Shown one piece after another: positions 6,451-19,053 of a stretch of 20,717 nt of DNA. Within the stretch, counting starts at the first letter, position 1; every line of letters starts with the position of its first letter. A model generated the notes under the pieces. It worked only from the letters and a program-made list of their open reading frames with translations. It had not been told where the DNA came from and ran no database searches. The translations under genes were made by a program, and so were the position numbers. This DNA is from a virus: the UHGV virus genome UHGV-1961940. The stretch is one strand, 5' to 3'.

Positions 6451-7816
6451 ACGTCCCCTCTTCGGCTCTGGTTTCAAAATCTTTCCTGACAATTTTGTCT
6501 AAGTCAGGGAATGTTGTATTGTAAAACTCTACGACTCGCGGGTCAACAATAATGTCAACTTCTCTTAGTGGACGCAACAAGTTTATTCCTTGTATTGTCT
6601 TAACCCGACTCAAAGCAACATACGTCATCCCAGGAGAGAAAGCTCCGTTCTTTCCAAGGTCCAGGTTGTAACAATCTAGCGTAAGTCCTTGACTTTTATG
6701 AGATGTTACGGCATACCCAGATTTCAGAGGAAGTTGCCTGTATGACCCAATCACTACCCTCTCTATAAACTTCTCCATCTTCCTTTCTGCAATGTTGTAT
6801 CTCTGAGATGGCTTATACTCGTTATTTTCCCACAACCTCTGCTCTATGTCAACCTGTGTTCCATCTTCAAGCTCTACCACCACCGCCTTGTTCTTAAATT
6901 TAACAATTGTGGCACGTGTTCCGTTAACATAATAAGGTACTTTGTGCGTCGGGTCAACATCGTTGGCGGTTATCATAACTTTCATGCCAATTTTCAACTT
7001 CATCTCCTGCTCAACTGGCAGGGTGGAGGGAAACTTACCCTTCATTTCACCAGTGTATACCTTCTCTGGGGCGTTGATGGCATCATAGAACCTTCTGTTC
7101 ACTTCCTCTGCTTGTTTGTTGGTGGCGCAAATTGTGAGAGCGTCTGTTGGTACACCGCCTTTGTAACAGCGAGCATTAAGTTCTGCTACAACCTCTTTTA
7201 TGCGACGACCCTCACGAACACAGTTGAGCATTGTGGCAAATCGAATAGACTCCTGTCGGAACTGGTCTATTAGGGCTATGTTGTGAAGGTCCAGCTCTTT
7301 CCAAGATTCGGTATAGCAACATAGGTCTGTGTGGTAGAAGTTGAAGTAGGCCTCCTTCTCCATAGAAGAGACAACAGGAGGTGCCTGGTAAAAATCGCCA
7401 AACAATATGACCTGTATGCCTCCGAAAGGTTTGTCATTTTTTCGAAGGAAGCGGAGTTTTCTATCCATCTCTATAAACTTATCAGCACGGATCATAGAGA
7501 TTTCATCGATAATTAGGATGGTAAATGCCTTGCTTTTCAAAGGCTTTGCTGTTTTTGCCCTTATTGCAGTCCAGTCAGACTCCATGCTCACACCTGCTGC
7601 AAGATCGAAGGTTCGGTGTGCTGTTGCTCCATTAACGTTTAAAGCGGCTACCCCTGTCGGGGCAACCGTTATGCAAGAGTCTCCATACATTGACTGGATC
7701 ATGTTGATGAGGTACGTCTTCCCACAACCTGCGGGTCCTGAAACGAAGACATTCTCCCCACTCATGATTGCAACAAGGGCAGCATCTGTGCCTACATCAT
7801 ACTGCCCTTTTTCCAT
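6425..7816 (-). CDS. PIF1/RecD-like SF1B DNA helicase
   Basis: Walker A is GPAGCGKTY and Walker B is LIIDEISMI. The PIF1-type motif III is FGDFYQAPPV. YAVTSHKSQGLTLD and YVALSRV are the C-terminal SF1B motifs. The start is coupled to the rIIB-like stop (TAATG) with a GAGGAGG SD. Confidence 0.9.
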   Translation of the reverse strand: MEKGQYDVGTDAALVAIMSGENVFVSGPAGCGKTYLINMIQSMYGDSCITVAPTGVAALNVNGATAHRTFDLAAGVSMESDWTAIRAKTAKPLKSKAFTILIIDEISMIRADKFIEMDRKLRFLRKNDKPFGGIQVILFGDFYQAPPVVSSMEKEAYFNFYHTDLCCYTESWKELDLHNIALIDQFRQESIRFATMLNCVREGRRIKEVVAELNARCYKGGVPTDALTICATNKQAEEVNRRFYDAINAPEKVYTGEMKGKFPSTLPVEQEMKLKIGMKVMITANDVDPTHKVPYYVNGTRATIVKFKNKAVVVELEDGTQVDIEQRLWENNEYKPSQRYNIAERKMEKFIERVVIGSYRQLPLKSGYAVTSHKSQGLTLDCYNLDLGKNGAFSPGMTYVALSRVKTIQGINLLRPLREVDIIVDPRVVEFYNTTFPDLDKIVRKDFETRAEEGTYEFVEKYS

Positions 7817-9031: not shown

Positions 9032-11014
9032 TTATTTGGTGTTATTCTTTGCGTCGATCAGTTCACGGTATTCAATCATAGCAGGAGTGTCCCAATATTT
9101 CAAGCCCACATGCTTCAAAAGTGGATATTTCTTTTCCAATCTTGCAATATAGGCCTTCCCGCACTTGACTCGGTTGGCGATTAAGATTTTGGCACGATGA
9201 TTTAGCTCACTGTGCTTCCACGCGGTGTTACCTTCCCACTTGTGGAAATGTGGCCGATAATTTCCAAAATCTTGCATGGGGATAATTTTCCCTAATTGTC
9301 TATACAGGCTGTCATATGAAGTTTCATTTGCTGCGCGAGTCAGTAAGAATTTCCAAGCATCCTCTTTCAACAAATGTTCCACATTCTTCTCTGTAACATA
9401 CTGGCAATCAGGATCAGTCCAAAGCAGACGAGATTCTGATACCAAGTACAGATCTTCACCTTCAGGAATCTGGAGTGCAGCACGCACACGGTCATAATTT
9501 TGCTGGTAGATGTTACTCAGCTGTCCCAGCCAACAACTTCCACGTTGGATATCACCCTCATAAGGAATGCAGTGCTTAATCTTCTTGAACTCTGCCTTAG
9601 TAATACGTTCACGACGGAAGTAACCATCCTTCTCAAGCTTTTTAACCCAATAACCTGGCTCGTAATGAGTTTTTGTTTCACCTTTCTTCGCAGGTCGGCG
9701 AGGGAGCTCTGATAACAATTTGACAGTATCTGCAAAGAACGGATGGTGTGCCGCCTCTTTAAACTCTTTCACCAGATCCGTGTTCCGGCAATAGAAAACG
9801 TTGCGTCCGGTGATTTCGCTTAAGTAGTTACACTTATTTCGGTTATATTTACCATCTCCGTCGTTAAATACAAGGTATACACCTCGTAAGAACTCCGACT
9901 TTCCGTAACGAGCATAGCCTATGCGGCCTTTATTTAAGCCGCCAGCGAAAATTTCACAATCGCCTAAGTCGCCAAGCCCTGTTTCTTCCCAACGGTTCCA
10001 CATAAAGTTTTTGCCGAAGATGTGTCCGAACACTCCACTATTCTTCATCATTTCACGTGCTTCTGCGGAGGTTTTTGCCGTCTCCAGTTCTGCAATAACT
10101 TCTGCCCCGCGAAGACGTATACCTTCTTTGACAAAGGCCTCCAGGCGATCCTGGAATCCACCGTCGTCATGGCCCTCTATGGTCCATTCACGCCCAGGGT
10201 TAATATTGCAATCCCCAATAGGAATTTCCACGCAGATTGCAGGGTAATCGGTCAATGTCTCCAGGAACTTGGAGCGGTAAGGTTGGTGACCCATCACAAC
10301 ACGGCTCTCATCAGAACTGGTATAACCTTTCAGGATGGTCATTTTCCAGCCATCCTTCTCGTAATGATACTGTGCCTCAACCTTGTCACCTTCTAACATC
10401 TTACTGGTCATAGGATCGGTGACGATGAACGGAAACTTCGCATAGCGTAAGCACGATGCAATAGCAGTGCAATATTTCAGGACATGCTCTTTCTTAACAT
10501 GGAACTGAACTTTTACCCCGTTGTGCTCTTCAGTCTTCCGCTCACGGATCTTGGTAACGTTTGGGATACCCTGATCCAAGAACAATAGATATGTGCTTTC
10601 AACACCATTGTGCACACTGATCACATCGAAAGTGTCCACCATACTGAACGGAGCCTTTGAACCAACACCTTTATTACCTACCAGAGCGTTGCTGTTGCGC
10701 TTGGTTGACTCCCCGAGATTCATGAAAGTGTTGCGGACCATCTCTTCTGACATGCCCAATCCAACGTCCTGCACAAAGAAGTATGGTTCAAGGTCTGTAG
10801 GAGAGTGAATGATGATCGGTACATCACCCCGTCCAGACTCAACATGGGAGTCCACAGCATTGAAGATTGGTTCACGGCAGCTTGCCAGCACCTTATCTTC
10901 GTAAATCCCTTTAATGATTAGCCCAAAAGTCTCTTTGTTCAGAGAAATTGAGCCCCTGGTGACCTCCATATTTCCGGTCAGCACTGCTTTAGTTTCATTA
11001 CTGTTTACAATCAT
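9032..11014 (-). CDS. rIIA: rIIA-like protein (N-terminal GHKL/HATPase-like fold)
   Basis: The N-terminus parallels T4 rIIA. MIVNSNETKAVLTGN matches MIITTEKETILGNG. REPIFNAVDSH matches RELITNMIDAH. FVQDVGLGMS matches VCRDFGPGMS. VGNKGVGSKAPFSMVDTFDVISVHNG matches [26 protein letters not shown]. Its size (660 aa) and its position upstream of the rIIB-like gene also fit. Confidence 0.85.
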   Translation of the reverse strand: MIVNSNETKAVLTGNMEVTRGSISLNKETFGLIIKGIYEDKVLASCREPIFNAVDSHVESGRGDVPIIIHSPTDLEPYFFVQDVGLGMSEEMVRNTFMNLGESTKRNSNALVGNKGVGSKAPFSMVDTFDVISVHNGVESTYLLFLDQGIPNVTKIRERKTEEHNGVKVQFHVKKEHVLKYCTAIASCLRYAKFPFIVTDPMTSKMLEGDKVEAQYHYEKDGWKMTILKGYTSSDESRVVMGHQPYRSKFLETLTDYPAICVEIPIGDCNINPGREWTIEGHDDGGFQDRLEAFVKEGIRLRGAEVIAELETAKTSAEAREMMKNSGVFGHIFGKNFMWNRWEETGLGDLGDCEIFAGGLNKGRIGYARYGKSEFLRGVYLVFNDGDGKYNRNKCNYLSEITGRNVFYCRNTDLVKEFKEAAHHPFFADTVKLLSELPRRPAKKGETKTHYEPGYWVKKLEKDGYFRRERITKAEFKKIKHCIPYEGDIQRGSCWLGQLSNIYQQNYDRVRAALQIPEGEDLYLVSESRLLWTDPDCQYVTEKNVEHLLKEDAWKFLLTRAANETSYDSLYRQLGKIIPMQDFGNYRPHFHKWEGNTAWKHSELNHRAKILIANRVKCGKAYIARLEKKYPLLKHVGLKYWDTPAMIEYRELIDAKNNTK

Positions 11015-11511
11015 TTATTGCGCTCCTTGTAGTAGATATGGCTCCCGAATTGAGTTGTCCTCTGCATCTTTTTTGCCCATTTCGGTCGTACTTTGGTTGT
11101 ATGGTAGTGTGTTGCTCCACCTGTTATGTCCATAGCCATGTATGCAACATGGTTGTTATTATAGACCTTTATAAGCATCTTTGCAAGACTTTTAGCGTGA
11201 TCCCATGAATCTTTTTCTGTCACCTTAAAAGTTTTGCCGTGGTTTGTCCACGAAAACTGGTTAGGTTGGTAGACAATCTTTCTTATAGTGTCTGGGTATT
11301 TAGGGTGGGATTTCCTGTTTAGTGTGGCAAACCCAGATGCCAGCATACCCATCGTGCCATCTCCTCTAGCTTCCCTGTAGATATTGCATGCCAGAATGTT
11401 TTCCTTAGTATCTGATGGCTTGCAAGTATGATATACTTTTTGTTTTGGTGCTGCAACAACAGGCAGCGATAAAAGTGCGCTCAAAATAATAGCAAAGATC
11501 TTAATTTTCAC
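11011..11511 (-). CDS. SleB/CwlJ-family cell-wall hydrolase with N-terminal signal peptide
   Basis: GTG start. The N-terminus MKIKIFAIILSALLSLPVVAAP looks like a signal peptide. The hydrolase_2-like core is ACNIYREARGD...GMLASGFATLNR...YQPNQFSW...GGATHYHT...FGSHIYY. Its stop overlaps the rIIA-like ATG (ATGA). Confidence 0.8.
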   Translation of the reverse strand: MKIKIFAIILSALLSLPVVAAPKQKVYHTCKPSDTKENILACNIYREARGDGTMGMLASGFATLNRKSHPKYPDTIRKIVYQPNQFSWTNHGKTFKVTEKDSWDHAKSLAKMLIKVYNNNHVAYMAMDITGGATHYHTTKVRPKWAKKMQRTTQFGSHIYYKERNK

Positions 11512-11520
11512 AATGACTCC

Positions 11521-11547
11521 AAATAGAAAATCCCCGCCGAAGCGGGG
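11521..11547 (-). terminator. Rho-independent terminator (minus strand)
   Basis: The minus-strand RNA reads CCCCGC-UUCG-GCGGGG followed by AUUUUCUAUUU. This is a 6-bp GC stem with a UUCG tetraloop and a U-rich tail, 14 nt after the stop of the 126-aa gene. Confidence 0.75.
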
Positions 11548-11560
11548 GAGGTCTTAGAAA

Positions 11561-11941
11561 TTAATCGTAGTGTGCCAAAATCTCTCCATCGTTGCAAGTT
11601 CCCTCTACAAAGTTATGAAGATTCATGCACTCATCTTGATAGAAGAATTTACCGCTTTTCAGCCGTAGGCCAAACAACTCCGCATCTCCACGATGGCAAG
11701 CCTCTACAAGTTCATAGATTTCATACGGCAACTCTCCGTCGTCATGGAAGAATCCAGCCTTATCGTTGACATAAATGAAGAAATAATCACTGCTATCGCA
11801 AGCGTCCAATATTTTAAACCAGACTTCATCTACATCTTTTTCTCGGATATCGATCACGCAAGTGGAACTGCATTCGTACTCCTTCTCCGGCTCCTCGGTC
11901 AATACCACCAGGTAGTTTCCCCGCTTACCTACTTTAGCCAT
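11561..11941 (-). CDS. Hypothetical protein (126 aa from ATG 11941)
   Basis: ATG 11941 is preceded by AAGGGGGG, directly after the AAA+ gene stop. The longer track ORF (start 11989) would overlap the AAA+ gene. No motif recognised. Confidence 0.65.
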   Translation of the reverse strand: MAKVGKRGNYLVVLTEEPEKEYECSSTCVIDIREKDVDEVWFKILDACDSSDYFFIYVNDKAGFFHDDGELPYEIYELVEACHRGDAELFGLRLKSGKFFYQDECMNLHNFVEGTCNDGEILAHYD

Positions 11942-11951
11942 ACAACCCCCC

Positions 11952-13136
11952 TTAAGCTTTAGCCAAAATGGCGCTAAACTCTTCACCAAACTCTTTTACA
12001 ATCTTCATCAGGTTTGGGTATGCTTTGATCAGCTGAGCAACAATCTTGTCACGCCCTTTACCGATAAGCAAGGCATTTCCTAAGGCATTAGGTTTCATCA
12101 TCGCCATAAAGACTGAGAATACAAAATCTCGGTTCTCGTCCTTGAAGTTTTCCCAAAGGAAATCGAGGAAGTTTGCCACGCAGCTGACAAGATCTTCGTC
12201 TGAGATACTTGCATTTTCCATCATATTGCGAATAGCGATACAACCTTCAGATCCAAGAATCCACAAAATGTCTGGCTGCTTAGGACCTACGTATTCTTTG
12301 CAGCCACCTGCCATAATCCGACCGATTTCCGGTAAATTACGTTTCTTGGTGTGGTAAGTCCAGATCTCTACCGCTGCAGTGTGACCAATAGCACCTTGTA
12401 GAAGAACACGGGCCATAGCGTCAGAAATAATACCGCTGTCAAAATCGTGCAAGATGTCAGATGCAGCAACCCAAGATCGTGGTGTGGCAAAAGATGGACA
12501 ATTAATCTCAGCCATAGCCTCATAATTATCAATAGCTGATGGAACTCTTTTCAGATACCCAATTACAGAGGAGTGAACCCCGTTGAGGAATGCGTAGTCC
12601 TCAATAAACACCTCTGCATTGCTTGTAACCTCTACAATGATAAAACGGTTAGCCAGAGGGGCTTCGAGCGCCGAAAGAACCGCACCATCTGTAGAACGGT
12701 TACCCGCAGCCACAAAAACAGAACCCTTAGGGAATGCATAGGTGCCGCACTTGTGGTCAAGCATAATTTGCATTGCAACCTTTTGCAGGTAGTTATCTGC
12801 ATGAGTGAGCTCATCCAGAAAGATAATTCCGCTCCAGTCAGGATCCGCAGGCCAAAATTCTGGAATTGCAAACACTGTACGTGTAGTTCCATCCGCTTCT
12901 ACAGGGATAGGTAGCCCAGATAAGTCGGCAGGATCTTTATCTGACAGTCGCACGTCAACAAGGTTGTCATCTCGCTCACCGAACATATTATCAGCGATCT
13001 GCTTCATCACCTGGCTTTTACCCACACCCATTGGTCCCAAAATTAGGACAGATCGGCTATGACGTTGGGCAAACTGAATAATAGCTGGCAACTCACGGAC
13101 AGTGATTTGACCACTTTCGAATACGTTTCTTGACAT
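11952..13136 (-). CDS. MoxR/CobS-type AAA+ ATPase (AAA_5-like)
   Basis: Walker A is ILGPMGVGKSQ and Walker B is IIFLDELTHA. The sensor-1 region is VFVAAGNRSTDG, followed by LANRF. This is a single AAA module with a helical C-terminal half. The start is coupled to the upstream stop (TAATG). Confidence 0.85.
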   Translation of the reverse strand: MSRNVFESGQITVRELPAIIQFAQRHSRSVLILGPMGVGKSQVMKQIADNMFGERDDNLVDVRLSDKDPADLSGLPIPVEADGTTRTVFAIPEFWPADPDWSGIIFLDELTHADNYLQKVAMQIMLDHKCGTYAFPKGSVFVAAGNRSTDGAVLSALEAPLANRFIIVEVTSNAEVFIEDYAFLNGVHSSVIGYLKRVPSAIDNYEAMAEINCPSFATPRSWVAASDILHDFDSGIISDAMARVLLQGAIGHTAAVEIWTYHTKKRNLPEIGRIMAGGCKEYVGPKQPDILWILGSEGCIAIRNMMENASISDEDLVSCVANFLDFLWENFKDENRDFVFSVFMAMMKPNALGNALLIGKGRDKIVAQLIKAYPNLMKIVKEFGEEFSAILAKA

Positions 13137-13405
13137 TAGTAAAAGTCCTCTACTTGTGTGTAAGTGTTTTCAAAGTTTTCCAAAACAGATATCACATCGA
13201 ATCTGTCAATATCATACGTGACTCTCCAGTTGTACGCAACCCTTTCTGCTGTTGCCTCTTCTGGCGCTAGTCGTCTGCTGGCATAAAAGAGTGTTGGAGT
13301 ACACTTTCTTGCTTGCCCTCTAACTTTCCCATAATAATATCTGTGAATATCTTTGTCAAAATTTAACTCTTTTTCTGCACGAAGTTCATATTGCTGGTAT
13401 AACAT
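13136..13405 (-). CDS. Hypothetical protein (89 aa)
   Basis: SD is AAGGAG. The stop overlaps the AAA+ start. Confidence 0.65.
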   Translation of the reverse strand: MLYQQYELRAEKELNFDKDIHRYYYGKVRGQARKCTPTLFYASRRLAPEEATAERVAYNWRVTYDIDRFDVISVLENFENTYTQVEDFY

Positions 13406-13449
13406 CTCTACTACTCCTTAAGCAGCATCCTTGCCGCCATTCCTGCCCA

Positions 13450-13830
13450 CTAAAATGCAGTCCGAATCCAGACAAGGTTCTTATCTGCCCAATCATAGAG
13501 GCAAGTCATTGCACTATTGAATTGCTCACACGGAGGATAATCTTCTTCCATCTGGCGCATAGCAGAGCCTTGTGGGTAAAGCTCCCGTGCTGCAAACCAC
13601 GCATCGTAGTCATCAACGGTGTCGAAGTAGTATACAACATCCTCTAACTCAGGATCGAACTTTGAACTATCAGGATCCAGTTGTTCAGGGAACTTGGAGC
13701 GTAACTTGCCAGCCACAATACTTGCCAACTCGCTAACATGCTTATTGTCCCACTCCACTAGCTTCCCGTCTTCAGTGATGCGTCCTAACCACTGATCATG
13801 AAGGTCAACTGTTGTCTTCCACTGAGCCAT
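13450..13830 (-). CDS. Hypothetical acidic protein (126 aa)
   Basis: SD is GAGGTGG. It lies 2 nt downstream of the previous stop. No motif recognised. Confidence 0.7.
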   Translation of the reverse strand: MAQWKTTVDLHDQWLGRITEDGKLVEWDNKHVSELASIVAGKLRSKFPEQLDPDSSKFDPELEDVVYYFDTVDDYDAWFAARELYPQGSAMRQMEEDYPPCEQFNSAMTCLYDWADKNLVWIRTAF

Positions 13831-13832
13831 TA

Positions 13833-14090
13833 TCAGTCCACCTCTTCTTCTCGTTGTAGTTCAAGATACCCGTAGGTCTGGACATCTTGAAGGGTGTGGA
13901 ACTCCCCCTCTGCCGCTAAGGCACGAACAACTTGGCACAAAACCTTATGAGGAACTTCATCCAAACCTAGATTCAGTGCAGGAAACACCTTATCTAAGTC
14001 AACAAAATAAACGAACTGTAGCTCACCAGCTTCAAAAGGTGTATCTTCAATAAACATCTTCTCGGCATTAGTCAAGATCTGCACTTTCAT
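13833..14090 (-). CDS. Hypothetical strongly acidic protein (85 aa)
   Basis: SD is GAGGAGG. TAATG coupling to the upstream gene. Confidence 0.7.
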   Translation of the reverse strand: MKVQILTNAEKMFIEDTPFEAGELQFVYFVDLDKVFPALNLGLDEVPHKVLCQVVRALAAEGEFHTLQDVQTYGYLELQREEEVD

Positions 14091-14446
14091 TATTCTACCT
14101 CCTCTTCTTTTTCTTCGGCATTAGTTTCATGGCTACCCCACTCGGGAGTTTCCACCTCGATAGTAAACTCACGCACTACACGGTAATTGCCCATGAAGCG
14201 CTCTACTTCGTCAAGGCTTATGGAGAGGCCATTGGCAACCAGGTCTGCAGCACCCTCTTCTACCAGGTAGTCCAGATTGGCTTCCAGAGCCTCAGGTTCA
14301 AACCCTGTCAATGCAATCAGATAACCTTCCCCTTCATCAGGGAGGACAATACAGCCCAATTGATTTTCTTTAAAAAGGCAGTGACCATCATTATTGATTG
14401 GGTGTTCATTGCAGTAAATAGCTGCACGATAAGTAACTTTAGACAT
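14090..14446 (-). CDS. Hypothetical acidic protein (118 aa from ATG 14446); its first 8 codons lie in the left copy of the 29-bp inverted repeat
   Basis: TAAGGAGACCTTACCGATG combines the stop of the upstream gene, an AAGGAG SD and an ATG at 14446 (MSKVTYRAAIYCNE...). The track start at 14467 lies inside the upstream gene and has no SD. Confidence 0.7.
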   Translation of the reverse strand: MSKVTYRAAIYCNEHPINNDGHCLFKENQLGCIVLPDEGEGYLIALTGFEPEALEANLDYLVEEGAADLVANGLSISLDEVERFMGNYRVVREFTIEVETPEWGSHETNAEEKEEEVE

Positions 14447-14451
14447 CGGTA
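14423..14451 (-). repeat. Left copy of the perfect 29-bp inverted repeat
   Basis: The plus strand reads TGCACGATAAGTAACTTTAGACATCGGTA, the exact reverse complement of 16285-16313. Flanking bases differ on both sides. Confidence 0.9.
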
Positions 14452-14459
14452 AGGTCTCC

Positions 14460-14738
14460 TTAGGCAATTGTCATTTTACATTCTTGAAATTTTAACACAA
14501 GACGGTAATTGTGTCTAGTGTCTAAAAAGATTTTTTCAACCATCAGGCACACGGTATAACCGTCCATCTTGTTGACAACAAAATCTCCAGGATGAGGGAG
14601 GATGTCTCCCGGATTGGGGAAACATAGTCCACTCAGAAAGGCATCGTCAGTGGTGGACTTAATAGATTTCCACACACTGTCTGCCTGAACATGTTCACCG
14701 ACGTAATATACATTACCACATGCCTTCATCATAGTCAA
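14460..14738 (-). CDS. Hypothetical protein (92 aa)
   Basis: ATGA overlap with the 299-aa gene and a GAGGG SD. No motif recognised. Confidence 0.65.
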   Translation of the reverse strand: MTMMKACGNVYYVGEHVQADSVWKSIKSTTDDAFLSGLCFPNPGDILPHPGDFVVNKMDGYTVCLMVEKIFLDTRHNYRLVLKFQECKMTIA

Positions 14739-15634
14739 ACCCTCGCATAAATTAAACTTGTATCAGTATACTTCTTTAATGGGTAAATATCCTGTCCATA
14801 GATGCAATCATTAAACACCTCATCTACCCAAAGGCTACACTTATATCCCATCATTTCTAAAACACCCATCTCTTCTTCGGTAAACTTATCACCGCTCTTG
14901 CAAGATGTCAATACCTCATTCTGAACTCTTGCTACCTCGAAGCGGTTATTGGCAATATCGCTATTGGCGATCAAATACTCACCTAGAGGGTGTGCGGCAT
15001 TAAAGATGCACAGTGGACGGCTGACGTAATAGTCTCCAGGTGTATAAAAATTGTTGAGGTCTTTCACTAGAACATTCTTATCAGTCACTTCATTTATAAC
15101 ATCATGCATATCGCACATCTTTATATGTTTGAGGATTCCATCCCCCATCACAAAATAAAAACTTGCTGAGACACTTTCGGCATAGATCTTACTAGATCCG
15201 TTGTAGTTGTATTTTACTCGGATGCTAACGGGGGTTTTTCCTGTCGCGTTAGCCATCATCCAAAGAAATGGCAGCTCATACTTCTCCTCTGAGGAAACAA
15301 AAGGTGAGGTAGCCAGAGATCGAAAACCTCCAGAGAAGTTGAAAGTTACAGAACCGCTCCGGCGGTATGATACCGCGTATTCTACTTTTATATCGACATA
15401 CCCATTGGAATAGGTGTGTCCTTCATTATCTAAATATGTCCACTTATCAGACCCAGATACCAATCTACGCTCAATAACCTTCATCACTATAGGAATTAAT
15501 GGGTTGGTACAAACCGCTTTTGAAGTAGCTTTATCATCTAAAGCCTCGTAAATTGCAGAAAGGATGTCCCCAGCTGAAAGATTGGTTGTTATGTCCTGTT
15601 TCCACCGCGTACTAAAACTGTTAAGATTTGCCAT
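14735..15634 (-). CDS. Hypothetical protein (299 aa), first gene of the leftward operon, AT-rich
   Basis: AGGAG SD 9 nt before ATG 15634, downstream of the near-consensus promoter. Spot counts of single 60-nt lines give about 32-33% G+C, against about 47-52% in lines from neighbouring genes. No motif recognised. Confidence 0.7.
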   Translation of the reverse strand: MANLNSFSTRWKQDITTNLSAGDILSAIYEALDDKATSKAVCTNPLIPIVMKVIERRLVSGSDKWTYLDNEGHTYSNGYVDIKVEYAVSYRRSGSVTFNFSGGFRSLATSPFVSSEEKYELPFLWMMANATGKTPVSIRVKYNYNGSSKIYAESVSASFYFVMGDGILKHIKMCDMHDVINEVTDKNVLVKDLNNFYTPGDYYVSRPLCIFNAAHPLGEYLIANSDIANNRFEVARVQNEVLTSCKSGDKFTEEEMGVLEMMGYKCSLWVDEVFNDCIYGQDIYPLKKYTDTSLIYARV

Positions 15635-15674
15635 AAGTAAGTGCTCCTATGTTAGTTTTCTTTCGAATGGGTGC

Positions 15675-15703
15675 ACTATATTGTGGAGTTAGAGTAAAGT
15701 CAA
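15675..15703 (-). promoter_or_regulatory. Leftward sigma-70/SigA-type promoter
   Basis: The minus strand reads TTGACT (15703-15698), a 17-nt spacer, then TATAGT (15680-15675). This places a start site about 35 nt upstream of ATG 15634, so the SD lies in the leader. Confidence 0.55.
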
Positions 15704-15716
15704 CACGTTTTTGATG

Positions 15717-15745
15717 TTGACATCTGTTGAGACAATTGATACGAT
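15717..15745 (+). promoter_or_regulatory. Rightward sigma-70/SigA-type promoter with extended -10
   Basis: TTGACA (15717-15722), a 17-nt spacer, then TGaTACGAT (TG at 15737-15738, -10 at 15740-15745). Its -35 lies 13 nt from the -35 of the leftward promoter. Confidence 0.45.
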
Positions 15746-15776
15746 TTCTTCACTTACAGAGCACGAGAGACGACTC

Positions 15777-16754
15777 ATGAATCTTGAAAAATATTATACA
15801 CCAGAAGAGTTAGAGCGCTTGCTCAAAAAATATAGACGCAAACAGAATAACGCACGGAAACGAGATATAGAGTTCGACCTGTCATGGGAAGAATACCTCC
15901 TATTTGGTAAAAAACTTTTAGGAGATGGAGTATGCGACTATACCCTTATACCTTTTGACATGCACACAGATGAAAACGGGCTGGGGAATCCTTTCTACCC
16001 ATCCCTGGAGCGGATAGATGATGAAGGTCCTTATGCGGTTGATAACTGTTGTGTGGTGGGATTGAGATGCAACTCTCTAAAGGACTGTCTGGTAGATAAA
16101 AAGACTGCAGTCTTGATTAAAGACGAAACTGATCGAAAAATTGTCCAGCAGATGATGCTCCACCTGAGCGAAGAGCGTATGGAGAAATTGAAAGGTGATT
16201 ATACTTTTGAAGATTTCATCTTGCAATATGGAACGGAAGAGGATAAACTAGCACTCTTTGACGAAGAAGAGGAGGAAGATATGCTACCGATGTCTAAAGT
16301 TACTTATCGTGCACCCAAGAAGCACATTTCCGACATTGTAAACGAGCCTATCACAGAAGAGATTGAAGAAATGACGCAACAGGTGCATGAAGAGGAAAAA
16401 GAGACTCAGGAGGTCGAAGAGGAGCTTACAGAAGAGGTTCCTGCACTACCTGATGATGTTGAGATTGCCAAAGCTTACACTTTCTATTGTCAAACGTTCT
16501 ACGATGTAGGTATGAAAGTTGATCTGTCGTTCAGCCAATTTAAGAGTTCGTATATTCGCAAATGCTGTGCTTTAACTGGTGAACGTCTTGGAGCTGGACT
16601 TAAACCCCTGTTGGTGACCGACTGGAATAAAGGTTTCACTAAAGGAAACTTTATGGTAGTATCTCCAATTATGAAGAAAGCTATGACAGATCTTATGAAG
16701 ACCACCCGCATGACAATGACCGAGTTGGCAGGTATTTTCAAACACGTTAAATAA
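15777..16754 (+). CDS. Hypothetical protein with an internally duplicated domain separated by an acidic linker (325 aa from ATG 15777; the track ORF starts at TTG 15711)
   Basis: Two copies of a module are present. The first is RDIEFDLSWEEY...CDYTLIPF...PSLERIDDEGPYAVDNCCVV. The second is GMKVDLSFSQF...CALTGERL...LLVTDWNKGFTKGNFMVV. It resembles small phage HNH-associated, nuclease-like domains, but that assignment is uncertain. The TTG/ATG starts at 15711/15714 lie upstream of the predicted promoter, so the first ATG in the predicted transcript is 15777. Confidence 0.65.
   Translation: MNLEKYYTPEELERLLKKYRRKQNNARKRDIEFDLSWEEYLLFGKKLLGDGVCDYTLIPFDMHTDENGLGNPFYPSLERIDDEGPYAVDNCCVVGLRCNSLKDCLVDKKTAVLIKDETDRKIVQQMMLHLSEERMEKLKGDYTFEDFILQYGTEEDKLALFDEEEEEDMLPMSKVTYRAPKKHISDIVNEPITEEIEEMTQQVHEEEKETQEVEEELTEEVPALPDDVEIAKAYTFYCQTFYDVGMKVDLSFSQFKSSYIRKCCALTGERLGAGLKPLLVTDWNKGFTKGNFMVVSPIMKKAMTDLMKTTRMTMTELAGIFKHVK
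16285..16313 (+). repeat. Right copy of the perfect 29-bp inverted repeat
   Basis: TACCGATGTCTAAAGTTACTTATCGTGCA encodes (LP)MSKVTYRA in frame inside the 347-aa ORF. It is preceded by GAGGAGG and ATG at 16269-16283. Confidence 0.9.
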
Positions 16755-16758
16755 TGAC

Positions 16759-16775
16759 AGGGGCCAATGGCCCCT
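16759..16775 (+). promoter_or_regulatory. GC hairpin between the 347-aa ORF and the VWA gene (possible leaky terminator or attenuator)
   Basis: AGGGGCC-AAT-GGCCCCT forms a 7-bp stem, followed by TCTGGAGTTTTAATG. The first in-frame ATG (16767) lies in the loop. The U-tract is interrupted. Confidence 0.5.
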
Positions 16776-16787
16776 TCTGGAGTTTTA

Positions 16788-18248
16788 ATGGATAGCAGAA
16801 GTTCAGAAATCATTGCCTCGCAGAAAGATGATGCCCTGAGAATGTTGCAGGCTGCACGTATGTATCTCCTTGAAAAGCTGCCGTTTTATGGCACACTACT
16901 GTCAGGGTTGCAGTTCGTAGAAAACCACACATGGTGCTCCACCATGGCAACCGACCATAAACGCATCTATTACAGTCCTGAGTTCATTATGGGATTGGCT
17001 GATGAACGCAAGGCTATTCTTAAGGCTTCTCTAACTGACGAGCAGTTTGAGATGGCTGAAGTTTTCTATTCTCCAAAATCTGTGAAAGAGGTGGCCTTCC
17101 TTCTGTCACATGAGGTGGGGCATATTATCTGTGATCACCTAGTCCGTGGTAAAAGCTTTGAGCCGGAACTGTTCAATATTGCTTGTGATCACGTTATCAA
17201 CACAGGCCTTGTGGTTGACTTTAGCAAACCTCCTTGTGTTTTCTTCCCGAAGGGGAAAAGCACTACGTTCATGAAAGGTAAGCCTTTTGGCTTCTTAGCC
17301 AGCTGCTACTGCGACATGAAGTTTCATGGATGGATTGCTGAGAACGTTTATGCAGTTCTTGATAAGCAAAGAGATCAGAATAACGGTAAAAGTAAGAACG
17401 GTAAAGGTGAGAACTCTCAAAGTGATAAGCGACAAACCGATGATCACATGAGTGGGAACGGTGGCACCAGTGATAATCTTGGAAAGGCTATGGGGTATGA
17501 TCAGCCACAACCTGTAATCAGCCAATCTGATAAAGATCAGGCCATGCAGGACTCTGGTGATATGCTGGAGGCAGCAATGCAAGCGTCCGGAGGCCGTTGC
17601 CCTGAGGCGGTGCGTGAGTTTGTCAAGAACAGAGGTAAGCCTGTAATCAACTATATAGACATCATTAAGCAACGTATGTTGTCTAAAAGAAAGGCCGAAC
17701 TGACCTACAGAAAACCTGGTCGCCGATCTGGGTCTTTGACCAGCACAATGCGAAAAGTTGGGGCTATAAACAAGAACCAGCACGTTATTGTTCCTGGTCG
17801 TAATCCGGAAAACACTATAGATATTGTGGTGGCTTTAGACGTTTCTGGCTCGATCTCTCAAAGAACTTTAAAGAAAATGTTCAATGAAATCACCGGATTG
17901 TGCAATCTGTATAAAGAGTTTAAGGTTACAATGTTCTGTTGGTCAACTGAGGTTGGAGAGGTTAAAGTATACACTCGCGGCAACATAGACGAGATGGTCA
18001 ACTATGAGGTCCACTCAACATGGGGCACAACAGCTGCTTGCGTGTTCGAGTATCTGGATGCCAACATACCTAATGCAAAAGATGTCATCGTCCTGACCGA
18101 CCTATACTTTGAGCATAACTTTGAACAAAAGGTTGTTGACAACAAGTGGAAAAAGTACGATACTCTATGGGTCCTCACTGAGGGGTATAATAAAAATTAT
18201 ATCCCGAGCTTTGGGAAAACTGTGGAATTAATCGAGTACGCTAAGTAA
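16788..18248 (+). CDS. Putative metallopeptidase-VWA fusion protein (DUF2201-like), the typical partner of MoxR AAA+ ATPases
   Basis: The HExxH zinc motif is SHEVGHIICDH in the N-terminal half. A long Q/N/S/D/G-rich linker follows. The C-terminal VWA has the MIDAS motif VALDVSGS. ATG 16788 has a GGAG SD 5 nt upstream. The alternative ATG 16767 sits in the hairpin loop. Confidence 0.85.
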   Translation: MDSRSSEIIASQKDDALRMLQAARMYLLEKLPFYGTLLSGLQFVENHTWCSTMATDHKRIYYSPEFIMGLADERKAILKASLTDEQFEMAEVFYSPKSVKEVAFLLSHEVGHIICDHLVRGKSFEPELFNIACDHVINTGLVVDFSKPPCVFFPKGKSTTFMKGKPFGFLASCYCDMKFHGWIAENVYAVLDKQRDQNNGKSKNGKGENSQSDKRQTDDHMSGNGGTSDNLGKAMGYDQPQPVISQSDKDQAMQDSGDMLEAAMQASGGRCPEAVREFVKNRGKPVINYIDIIKQRMLSKRKAELTYRKPGRRSGSLTSTMRKVGAINKNQHVIVPGRNPENTIDIVVALDVSGSISQRTLKKMFNEITGLCNLYKEFKVTMFCWSTEVGEVKVYTRGNIDEMVNYEVHSTWGTTAACVFEYLDANIPNAKDVIVLTDLYFEHNFEQKVVDNKWKKYDTLWVLTEGYNKNYIPSFGKTVELIEYAK

Positions 18249-18263
18249 GAGAGGAGGTTATTT

Positions 18264-18527
18264 ATGGCAACAGAGTTAAAATTTGCATCAAACCGTAAAA
18301 CTAAGAAGTATCTGTCCTCAGTAGCTCCAGGCACTGTGGTGATGTTTGTTGATGAACTTGGGGATGTGAATACAGCACTTGTTGTAAAATCACATCCTGC
18401 AAACATATATGTTGGGGTATTTGACCTGTTCAGAAAGGTGTTTGTAGAACTGCCTCACAGTTTGGTTGTTACAGAAATGGATGCCTGCATAGAAATTCTT
18501 GGCGAAGTTATGGTGGAGGAACAATAA
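18264..18527 (+). CDS. Small protein, paralog 1 of a four-gene tandem family (87 aa)
   Basis: SD is GAGGAGG. It shares the pattern K..f..G.VV....d......mvV.......fDl......L.....Vte.D..I.IlGE with the next gene. Confidence 0.7.
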   Translation: MATELKFASNRKTKKYLSSVAPGTVVMFVDELGDVNTALVVKSHPANIYVGVFDLFRKVFVELPHSLVVTEMDACIEILGEVMVEEQ

Positions 18528-18790
18528 TGGCTACCAGCATTGTATTCAATTCTAAGGTGAAGAACAAAAAGCGTGCAGACAGTTTTCCGTGTGGGACCGT
18601 GGTAAGTTGCGACGGAGACGGCATTCAAAACATAGTTATGATTGTCAAAACAGGAGAACATTGTGTGTGGGGGTTCGATTTAGAAAATAATGAGTTGTAC
18701 GATCTGCCGCCAAACATGAAAGTTACAGAGCTTGACACCAAAATTACCATCCTTGGAGAGACAAGCTATTCAAAAGAAGGAGGAGAATAA
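18527..18790 (+). CDS. Small protein, paralog 2 (87 aa)
   Basis: TAATG coupling to the previous gene. Same length and pattern as paralog 1 (MAT..., GTVV, FDL, VTE(M/L)D, ILGE). Confidence 0.7.
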   Translation: MATSIVFNSKVKNKKRADSFPCGTVVSCDGDGIQNIVMIVKTGEHCVWGFDLENNELYDLPPNMKVTELDTKITILGETSYSKEGGE

Positions 18791-19053
18791 TGACCACAAA
18801 AATCACTATCGCAGAACCGAAAGCTAACACTCAGCCTATCGAAAAGTTTAAGTACGGTGAGGTGGTAACATTCACACCAGATAATGAAGATGCTAAGATT
18901 TTCGCAATGGTCACAGCTGAGTGGATGTGTGACAACACCACACAGGTTCTGCGTTTTGACACCTATCTTACCGATGAAATCAGGAACGACAAGATTGTGA
19001 CTGGTGTGGATACTGAGATTGTTTTCTACAAGAGCTTTTTAGAGGGTTTCTGA
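18790..19053 (+). CDS. Small protein, paralog 3 (87 aa, more divergent)
   Basis: TAATG coupling and the same length. Retains K(F/Y)..GEVVTF...FAMV...RFD...VTGVDTEI. Confidence 0.65.
   Translation: MTTKITIAEPKANTQPIEKFKYGEVVTFTPDNEDAKIFAMVTAEWMCDNTTQVLRFDTYLTDEIRNDKIVTGVDTEIVFYKSFLEGF

Follow-up and report, generated by a model that had tools for sequence, protein, structure and literature searches.

The question that this locus raises is whether an AAA+ ATPase and a metallopeptidase containing a von Willebrand factor (VWA) domain, encoded on opposite arms of a divergent promoter region, still make up one machine, and whether their separation has brought the two halves under different control. 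The window, i.e. the whole stretch of DNA that was analysed (20,717 nucleotides of the UHGV virus genome UHGV-1961940), shows 99.9% identity to Escherichia phage Murica (Vequintavirus), with a Murica coordinate plus 9031 giving the window coordinate. Both ORFs match deposited Murica CDSs: the ATPase gene at 11952..13136 on the minus strand, labelled “ATPase” or “MoxR ATPase” in GenBank, and the partner gene at 16788..18248 on the plus strand, labelled “metallopeptidase, contains von Willebrand factor domain”. The pair is not newly recognised, as is evident from these GenBank names, from Iyer et al. 2021 and from Chan et al. 2014, and the rV5-type arrangement is a lineage-specific rearrangement of an already known pair. 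We consider it likely that the two genes together specify a single conserved machine, of the type of phage N4 gp24/gp25, the ATPase gene having been relocated in the rV5-like lineage to which this E. coli phage belongs.

The 394-aa product of 11952..13136, a MoxR-class AAA+ ATPase and homologue of N4 gp24, matches phrog_1297 at an E value of 2e-110. Its translation carries a Walker A motif (G34-PMGVGKS41), a Walker B motif (IIFLD108-E109), the sensor-1 residue N146 (VAAGNRS) and the arginine finger R164 (LANRF), with G37, G39, K40, S41, D108, E109, N146 and R164 being invariant across 39 homologues, so that the Walker A, Walker B and sensor-1 motifs listed in an earlier note on this DNA are all borne out. 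The window protein itself misses the Pfam gathering threshold, with AAA_5 (PF07728) reaching 16.7 bits where 22 are required, and AAA_3 (PF07726) not being reported. Homologues carrying AAA_3, AAA_5 and bpMoxR were found at E values of about 1e-44, and among the 39 that were aligned, 16 (30-33% identical to the window protein) match both AAA_3 and AAA_5, while five match bpMoxR. The profile of the ATPase has the AAA modules of midasin as its top PDB match (4e-11), and in a Foldseek comparison of its AF2 model (pLDDT 84.6) ranks 1-16 are occupied by NorQ and CbbQ2, described as “MoxR AAA+” (E 9e-8 to 8e-6). DSSP assigns to this model a hairpin at residues 75-90 and short strands at 138-145, immediately before beta4, which we read as the putative helix-2 insert and pre-sensor-1 beta-hairpin, and the C-terminus forms a helical extension of roughly 120 aa. 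The assignment to the MoxR class, which the earlier note had also made, thus holds by indirect evidence from homologue domains and from the fold; it is transitive and not direct, because it is the homologues and not the window ATPase that pass AAA_3 and AAA_5.

The partner, a 486-aa homologue of N4 gp25 that matches phrog_1314 at 7e-123, consists of a zincin-like metallopeptidase domain (HEVGH) and a C-terminal VWA domain, joined by a disordered linker (residues 200-228). Both Pfam domains pass the gathering cut-off and follow each other from N- to C-terminus, DUF2201_N at residues 96-321 (99.1 bits, cut-off 23.2; 4.4e-28) and DUF2201 at residues 353-488 (44.0 bits, cut-off 26.4; 2.9e-11) of a 493-aa ORF, which confirms the protein as the DUF2201-type fusion of HExxH and VWA that it had been taken for. 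The annotated ATG at 16788 has GGAG 6 nt upstream, and the longer ORF start at 16767 falls within a hairpin. Next to H108-EVGH112, the protein contains D351-VSGS355, with T414 and D438 completing the MIDAS; D351, S353, S355, T414 and D438 are invariant both in an alignment of 12 diverse homologues and in one of 27 sequences. Of the zinc-motif residues, H108 and H112 are invariant in the former, E109 being nearly so, and in the latter each of the three is nearly invariant (>=90%); one distant homologue has HAVCH. Structure comparison of the AF2 model (pLDDT 81) shows that the C-terminal domain resembles VWA folds, the NorD VWA among them. The family comprises 20,009 representative clusters at E<=1e-10. 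Under strict profiles, no ORF with both ATPase and VWA domains was found; an “overlap” class was rejected as fusions, being explained by ORFs that overlap by about 23 nt and by jackhmmer drift, and two long homologues (P0179 and P0232) were likewise rejected as ATPase fusions, being explained by an intein (Hint + LAGLIDADG) or other insertion.

That the two families belong together is suggested by their genomic neighbourhoods. The locus search used the closer alignment, as the 12-sequence alignment of distant homologues offered no usable conserved stretch, and outside the rV5 clade it yielded 72 viral and 37 MAG contigs, leaving 101 informative loci after removal of eight lacking upstream DNA. 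The synteny survey proposed earlier thus shows that the families do co-occur: the ATPase gene precedes the VWA gene on one strand in 98 of the 101 loci and is on the opposite strand in none, and three loci (L054, L114 and L121) have a VWA gene with no ATPase gene nearby. The gap between the two has a median of 115 nt over the 79 loci with a measured gap, and in about 20 further MAG loci the ORFs overlap by more than 10 nt, typically by about 23 nt. Same-strand separations range over 0-4.9 kb of intervening genes, with the order being kept in N4 (gp24 before gp25), in the Vequintavirinae relatives phiTE and LTH01 and, across four genes, in the jumbo phage Callisto; tight linkage is hence not strictly required, which slightly weakens the argument from synteny. 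The scan of genome contigs returned only phage-like MAG contigs and no independent “cellular” context. It is strongly supported by these gene orders that in phages the ATPase and VWA families co-occur almost obligatorily, as an ATPase-then-VWA gene pair.

In the window, the distance from the ATPase start (13136) to the VWA start (16788) measures 3.65 kb, close to the 3.6 kb estimated before, and the genes lie on opposite strands with the divergent junction (15635-15776) between them. Where the earlier note had counted six small unknown genes in this interval there are actually seven, six on the minus strand, encoding 89, 126, 85, 118, 90 and 299 aa, and one on the plus strand. The latter (15777..16754), a 325-aa Srd-like/HNH-like “anti-sigma factor” gene, matches phrog_3118 at 1.5e-112 and, more weakly, Srd and sigma70-decoy families; it sits between the promoter hub and the VWA gene, directly 5' of the VWA gene, and a same-strand Srd-like gene is found 5' of the VWA gene in all seven split-clade loci that were compared. 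On the other side, the stop of the 89-aa gene (13136..13405, minus strand; phrog_13164) overlaps the ATPase start by 1 nt, which makes translational coupling possible; this gene adjoins the ATPase gene only in close relatives, one of which (L003) has the identical 1-nt overlap.

The placement of the two genes on opposite arms, as first described, is real and conserved in 10 of 10 loci sampled from the split clade (rV5/Av-05/BIS47-type phages and relatives, Vequintavirinae), in which the VWA proteins are 43-100% identical to that of the window and 3.5-5.2 kb separate the VWA gene from an ATPase gene on the other strand. The orthologous pairs of phiTE (Pectobacterium, Certrevirus; genes 058 and 060) and of Escherichia phage LTH01, at 35-37% identity, share with the window the divergent hub and a minus arm that is colinear in its replication and SleB genes, but both of their genes are on the plus arm, adjacent in LTH01 and in the order 058-HNH-060, i.e. 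with an HNH homing endonuclease in between, in phiTE. As the phiTE minus arm is colinear with that of the window (DNA polymerase, primase/helicase, helicase, SleB) and contains no ATPase gene, the ATPase gene is the one that moved. Since an ATPase gene on the opposite strand was found only in the rV5-type clade, the Vequintavirinae relatives being unsplit, the arrangement is derived and stably inherited. The comparison indicates a move of the ATPase gene onto the minus arm, within the same early divergent promoter region, with the VWA gene remaining on the plus side. A perfect 29-bp inverted repeat, noted earlier between the two genes, does exist, with its arms (14423-14451 and 16285-16313) on either side of the hub. 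It was considered as the origin of the split and rejected: because both genes lie outside the arms, an arm-to-arm inversion leaves their relative orientation unchanged, and the repeat has no visible part in the split.

As to regulation, a scan for the sigma70-like consensus places candidate sites of a divergent promoter hub at 15675..15745, namely a minus-strand site TTGACT-17-TATAGT (15703-15675) and a plus-strand site TTGACA-17-(TG)TACGAT (15717-15745), both of whose -35 boxes sit in the arms of an inverted repeat, GTCAACAcgtttttgATGTTGAC (15699-15721). The VWA gene is 1.0 kb and the ATPase gene 2.5 kb from this back-to-back hub. Because both genes are at one hub, with two -35 boxes in one inverted repeat, co-regulation appears at least as likely as separate control, and joint expression of the genes probably persists, driven by the shared hub and by local sigma70-type promoters. 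A different model, which takes up the idea of the earlier note, holds that the split is adaptive and that separate promoters permit independent dosing (e.g. 6:1 ATPase to partner) or staggered timing. It would draw on a strong promoter-like site, TTGACA-17-TATTAT (11 of 12), at 13331..13359 on the minus strand, which lies within the 89-aa gene 223 nt 5' of the ATPase ATG and has a counterpart, TTGACA-17-TATCAT, at the same position in L003 (62-73% identity). It would also draw on a G+C-rich hairpin, AGGGGCCAATGGCCCCT (16759..16775, plus strand), situated between the Srd-like stop (16754) and the ATG of the VWA gene, directly before its RBS, which is annotated as a terminator in Murica and is possibly an attenuator or RNA-stability element, and on a promoter-like site 57-69 nt 5' of the VWA gene in more distant split-clade members. 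However, a single 11/12 match arises by chance in 18% of region shuffles, and the 13331..13359 site is only suggestive as an ATPase promoter; promoter-like sites are not clearly enriched in the region (20 found against 14.4 +/- 3.9 expected), and both genes depend on the same hub. Neutral rearrangement suffices as an explanation, since the pair tolerates the intervening genes found elsewhere. We saw no evidence of new regulation created by the split, and consider an adaptive origin to be quite improbable.

If the machine works like NorQ-NorD, CbbQ-CbbO, RavA-ViaA and midasin, a hexameric ring of the ATPase would bind one partner via its VWA domain, the MIDAS of which would capture an acidic residue of the target protein, and ATP-driven remodelling through the linker would expose the target to the N-terminal zincin domain, or activate that domain. 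In the cryo-EM structure of NorQD, the VWA finger is located in the ATPase pore, the MIDAS binds the target and the linker is remodelled. The context suggests that the pair is active in the early to middle phase of infection and forms no part of the virion, a timing based on consensus promoter matches and on the N4 literature, according to which gp24 and gp25 are middle transcripts and are among the 14 N4-like core genes (Chan et al. 2014). N4 gp26 is a dCTP deaminase, and in metagenomic contigs the pair is accompanied by genes for thymidylate synthase, DHFR and a 5'-3' exonuclease. It is tentatively proposed that the machine could be an early/middle core module that remodels a replication, nucleotide-metabolism or host complex by proteolysis, and is not a virion chaperone; such a module may be near-universal in several large lytic groups (N4-like, rV5-like and several jumbo lineages). 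Were this so, the rV5 split, with its putative ATPase promoter and its partner-gene hairpin, would be a natural experiment in independent subunit dosing.

The role in virion assembly proposed by Iyer et al. for group 2.2 jumbo phages (PMC7824862), with the precedent of Acidianus two-tailed virus discussed below, would make the pair a chaperone and maturation protease, folding or assembling structural proteins (e.g. of the tail or fibres) that the zincin domain would then trim. Core-gene status in N4-like phages would fit such a basic morphogenetic role, and the window protein shares its family with homologues from jumbo phages (RaK2, Muenster, SE_PL). We nevertheless find this role rather unlikely, as the pair is beside structural genes in none of the examined loci, accompanies nucleotide-metabolism and replication genes, is transcribed as middle genes in N4 and, in the window, is near the early sigma70-type promoter hub, the Srd-like gene and rII; evidence from virion proteomes was not found. 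The early location beside the Srd-like anti-sigma gene and the rII genes, together with the presence of N4 rIIA and rIIB 3 kb downstream of gp25, could point to a host-takeover or counter-defence protease, which would recognise a host protein complex early and then cleave or dismantle it. Counter-defence genes are usually patchy and host-specific, whereas this pair is a conserved core pair in phages whose hosts differ widely (enterobacteria, Pseudomonas, Vibrio and roseobacters, besides metagenomes from freshwater and the sea), the partner family extends over the 20,009 clusters, and PADLOC gave no meaningful matches, all of which makes this role unlikely; a relationship to defence systems was rejected on the same PADLOC result.

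A further model holds that the two proteins have been functionally uncoupled in the rV5 clade, the ATPase working alone or with another partner and the VWA-peptidase without an ATPase. The opposite strands, the 3.5-5.2 kb gap and the different local promoter-like sites would agree with it, as would the three VWA genes elsewhere that lack a nearby ATPase gene. It is very improbable given that all 10 split-clade loci keep both genes down to 43% identity, that all catalytic and MIDAS residues are intact, that the window region showed no further gene for a VWA domain, and that the C-terminal extension of the ATPase is common to the unsplit phiTE and LTH01, whose ATPases measure 403-413 aa; because these relatives have it, the extension is not an adaptation to a new partner. 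The preferred reading is thus a single gp24/gp25-type machine, the diffusible products of both genes meeting in trans, which would render linkage dispensable and allow the split to be stably inherited.

Literature searches on DUF2201, COG3864, rV5 MoxR and N4 gp24/gp25 gave no experiments on the phage pair, in agreement with the earlier statement that its function is essentially uncharacterised; in the CRISPRi-ART paper, the rV5-like phage EdH4 was used only for the major capsid protein and the rII genes and not genome-wide. The interest of the pair lies in its conservation in the N4-like core, in Vequintavirinae and in several jumbo phages, with a partner family of some 20,000 clusters. The rV5-type split adds little mechanistically, yet it shows that co-transcription is dispensable, and with rV5, EdH4 and BASEL Bas48-59 there are tractable phages of E. 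coli in which either half can be disturbed while the other is spared polar effects.

Among known systems, N4 gp24/gp25 (Schitoviridae) are related to the window proteins at 27% and 21% identity (tblastn, E 2e-25 and 6e-17), and the DUF2201_N + DUF2201 architecture recurs in gp25-type proteins. In both phages the pair is apparently non-structural and lies in the early/middle region, the ATPase gene being followed after a few kb by rIIA/rIIB in the same orientation; the N4 genes, however, are adjacent on one strand (167-nt gap), whereas those of the window are on opposite strands 3.65 kb apart, and at its C-terminus the window ATPase exceeds gp24 by about 40 aa. In the group 2.2 jumbo phages, Iyer, Anantharaman, Krishnan, Burroughs and Aravind (2021) described a MoxR AAA+/vWA-metallopeptidase pair as an adjacent chaperone/co-chaperone pair with a proposed role in virion assembly, on the model of the MoxR/VWA proteins that Acidianus two-tailed virus requires to develop its tails (PMC7824862). 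The window VWA protein is matched by jumbo phages of the RaK2, Muenster and SE_PL types (27-29% identity, E 1e-36 to 5e-41), and their pair is adjacent, whereas that of the window is split and in an early-gene context. The bacterial couples NorQ-NorD, CbbQ-CbbO, RavA-ViaA and CobS-CobT share no sequence-level family membership with the window pair; their VWA partners have no zincin HExxH domain and act in metal insertion or in the activation of enzymes, and compared with the bacterial MoxR couples the window ATPase carries an additional helical domain at its C-terminus. NorQ and CbbQ2 are nonetheless the closest structures to the window ATPase model, and the window partner is built like NorD, with an N-terminal domain, a disordered linker and a C-terminal VWA domain that carries the MIDAS.

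The synteny survey suggested by an earlier note on this DNA bears out the pairing of the AAA+ ATPase with the VWA-domain metallopeptidase. Loci were fetched around relatives of the VWA protein (80 on viral contigs and 37 in MAGs), and homologues of the ATPase were located in them by profile searches. At 98 of the 101 informative loci outside the rV5-like clade, i.e. those with enough upstream DNA to judge, the ATPase gene precedes the VWA gene on the same strand; it was found on the opposite strand at none of the 101, and at the other three no ATPase was found near the VWA gene. The gap between the two genes, measured at 79 loci, has a median of 115 nt, being at most 150 nt in 46 and exceeding 1 kb in 11 (maximum 4.9 kb), and at about 20 further MAG loci the two ORFs overlap by more than 10 nt, typically by ~23 nt. 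The same order is found in N4 (gp24 followed by gp25), in the Vequintavirinae relative LTH01, where the genes are adjacent, and in Callisto, a jumbo Pseudomonas phage in which four genes intervene. In phiTE, also a Vequintavirinae relative, an HNH homing endonuclease gene (059, at 6472-6984 of the phiTE locus L083) is inserted exactly between the ATPase (058) and VWA (060) genes, and the junction therefore tolerates insertions. By tblastn, the VWA protein was detected in 667 phage records and relatives of the ATPase in 821. This comparative evidence argues strongly that the two proteins are a functional couple, physical contact between them being a separate matter.

In the window the two genes are on opposite strands, as they are at all 10 rV5-like loci (3.5-5.2 kb apart), which confirms the split across the divergent promoter hub that the earlier note had described. 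Two of these loci are from Murica and rV5_ev146, close relatives of the window, and eight from more distant contigs, with VWA proteins 43-100% identical to that of the window. A gene-by-gene comparison of seven of them places the Srd-like gene upstream of the VWA gene, in the same orientation, in every case. The minus arm of phiTE is colinear with that of the window, with DNA polymerase, primase/helicase, helicase, and SleB in matching order, and carries no ATPase. Judged by gene order, adjacency is the ancestral state, since N4-like and metagenomic phages serve as outgroups, and the ATPase gene was evidently moved to the other side of the hub in one lineage of the Vequintavirinae. Every catalytic residue of both genes is kept in the split lineage, and therefore neither gene has decayed. 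An order of ATPase and then rIIA-rIIB on one strand is common to the window (9032-13136) and the N4 locus L122 (3939-14001), the VWA gene being absent between them in the window, unlike in N4; this shared order could be fortuitous or could survive from an old early/middle module.

For positions 11000-19000 of the window, 122 phage records reach an identity of at least 90%, the top match being Escherichia phage Murica (Vequintavirus, Vequintavirinae) at 99.9%, whose coordinates become those of the window on addition of 9031. Sixteen records (MG0656xx) titled “Campylobacter phage” (host C. jejuni) likewise share ~99% identity with this region of an E. coli Vequintavirus, which suggests a mis-assigned host or contamination. 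From the hub outward, the minus arm carries genes of 299, 90, 118, 85, 126, and 89 aa, then the ATPase gene (11952-13136), a 126-aa gene and a terminator-like hairpin, beyond which lie the SleB hydrolase, rIIA, and rIIB genes and, farther on, genes that include homologues of the phiTE helicase, primase/helicase, and DNA polymerase. The plus arm starts with a gap (15635-15776), followed by the Srd-like/HNH-like “anti-sigma” gene (15777-16754), a G+C-rich hairpin (16759-16775) preceding the ribosome-binding site of the VWA gene, the VWA gene itself (16788-18248), and small genes. The coordinates, motifs and 3.6-kb spacing reported earlier for the pair are correct; the “six small unknown genes” placed between them are in fact seven, two of which encode about 300 aa or more. 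Directly 3′ of the VWA gene, at 18264-19053, stand three ORFs in tandem, every one exactly 87 aa long, of which the first two are clear paralogues (identical at 33 of 90 aligned positions) and the third is only weakly similar.

Two σ70-like promoters are predicted back to back in the hub, TTGACT-17-TATAGT on the minus strand (15703-15675) and TTGACA-17-TG-TACGAT on the plus strand (15717-15745), and one inverted repeat (15699-15721, GTCAACAcgtttttgATGTTGAC) has their −35 hexamers as its two halves; it could be a single point from which the minus and plus arms are both controlled. A promoter-like site that matches at 11 of 12 positions is found 223 nt 5′ of the ATPase ATG; taken alone, a site of this kind turns up by chance in 18% of shuffles, and a relative of 62-73% identity has an equivalent site at the matching position. 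The hub promoters, the ATPase site and the hairpin are all pattern matches, and would be compatible either with co-regulation from the shared hub or with independent dosing of the two genes. The hub is also flanked by a 29-bp perfect inverted repeat (14423-14451 and 16285-16313), which Murica and rV5_ev146 share and the 62%-identity relatives lack. The repeat codes for LPMSKVTYRA in two places: at the very beginning of the 118-aa gene on the minus strand (ATG at 14446), and, once more in frame, midway through the Srd-like gene on the plus strand, right after an acidic run. If its arms recombined, the hub segment of 1.8 kb would be inverted and the N-terminal half of the Srd-like ORF would be swapped over to the 118-aa ORF.

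The ATPase itself gives only generic, below-threshold matches in Pfam and NCBIfam, and a PDB search with the single sequence returns only P-loop-level similarity to Clp/p97 proteins. It is a member of phrog_1297 (E = 2e-110), and its distant homologues (E ~1e-44; identity 31-38% in local and 30-33% in multiple alignment) contain the Pfam domains AAA_3, AAA_5, and in some cases bpMoxR. The best match of a 39-sequence profile is to the AAA modules of midasin (4e-11), and the 16 best Foldseek matches of its AF2 model (pLDDT 84.6) are all NorQ and CbbQ2, MoxR-family ATPases that work with VWA partners. The Walker A, Walker B, sensor 1, and arginine-finger residues are invariant among homologues. 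The designation “MoxR-class” is thus accepted because of the predicted fold and transitive homology, though the protein itself falls under the Pfam cut-offs.

Its partner is above threshold for both DUF2201_N (4.4e-28) and DUF2201 (2.9e-11), and a search with its profile across 1.84 billion representative proteins yielded 20,009 relatives at E ≤ 1e-10. Among homologues down to 19-28% identity the HExxH motif is nearly invariant and the complete MIDAS (DxSxS...T...D) invariant. In the AF2 model (pLDDT 81) the N-terminal domain is helical, and a disordered linker (residues 200-228) joins it to a C-terminal domain whose matches are VWA folds, that of NorD among them. The label “HNH endonuclease” borne by this zincin-VWA family in PHROGs (phrog_1314) and RefSeq (N4 gp25 and phiTE_060) appears to be a propagated error, and the label “ATPase” on phrog_13164, the family of the 89-aa gene, likewise looks like a propagated mis-annotation. 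A metagenomic homologue of 794 aa (P0179) contains an intein, with Hint and LAGLIDADG domains, inside its metallopeptidase domain; inteins are usually located at conserved sites of important proteins.

As for function, N4 transcribes gp24 and gp25 as middle genes, and both are among the 14 genes that make up the core of N4-like phages (Chan et al. 2014). The neighboring N4 gp26 is a dCTP deaminase, with rIIA/rIIB a few kb downstream; thymidylate synthase, DHFR, and a 5′-3′ exonuclease recur beside the pair on metagenomic contigs; and in the window the pair flanks the early promoter hub, with the Srd-like and rII genes nearby. This context points away from the structural module, and a role as virion-assembly chaperone with peptidolytic processing, proposed for the jumbo-phage pair by analogy with Acidianus two-tailed virus (Iyer et al. 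2021, PMC7824862), is ranked second. In the reading preferred here, by analogy with NorQ-NorD, the ATPase would form a hexameric ring gripping one partner through its VWA domain, the MIDAS would engage an acidic residue of a target protein, and force from ATP, passed via the linker, would present that target to the zincin domain.

Both genes were already annotated in deposited records, in Murica as “ATPase, contains ATPase domain” and “metallopeptidase, contains von Willebrand factor domain”, with “MoxR ATPase” as the ATPase label in rV5_ev146, LL12, and V5. What sequence comparison adds is a quantified synteny rule for the ATPase-VWA order and the reading of the opposite-strand split as a derived trait of one Vequintavirinae lineage. 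The result is modest and useful mainly because a genetically tractable E. coli phage would let each half be perturbed separately, without polar effects on the other. The pair is otherwise of a known kind, that of N4 gp24/gp25, and the same kind as the MoxR-vWA(metallopeptidase) pair of jumbo phages (Iyer et al. 2021, PMC7824862).
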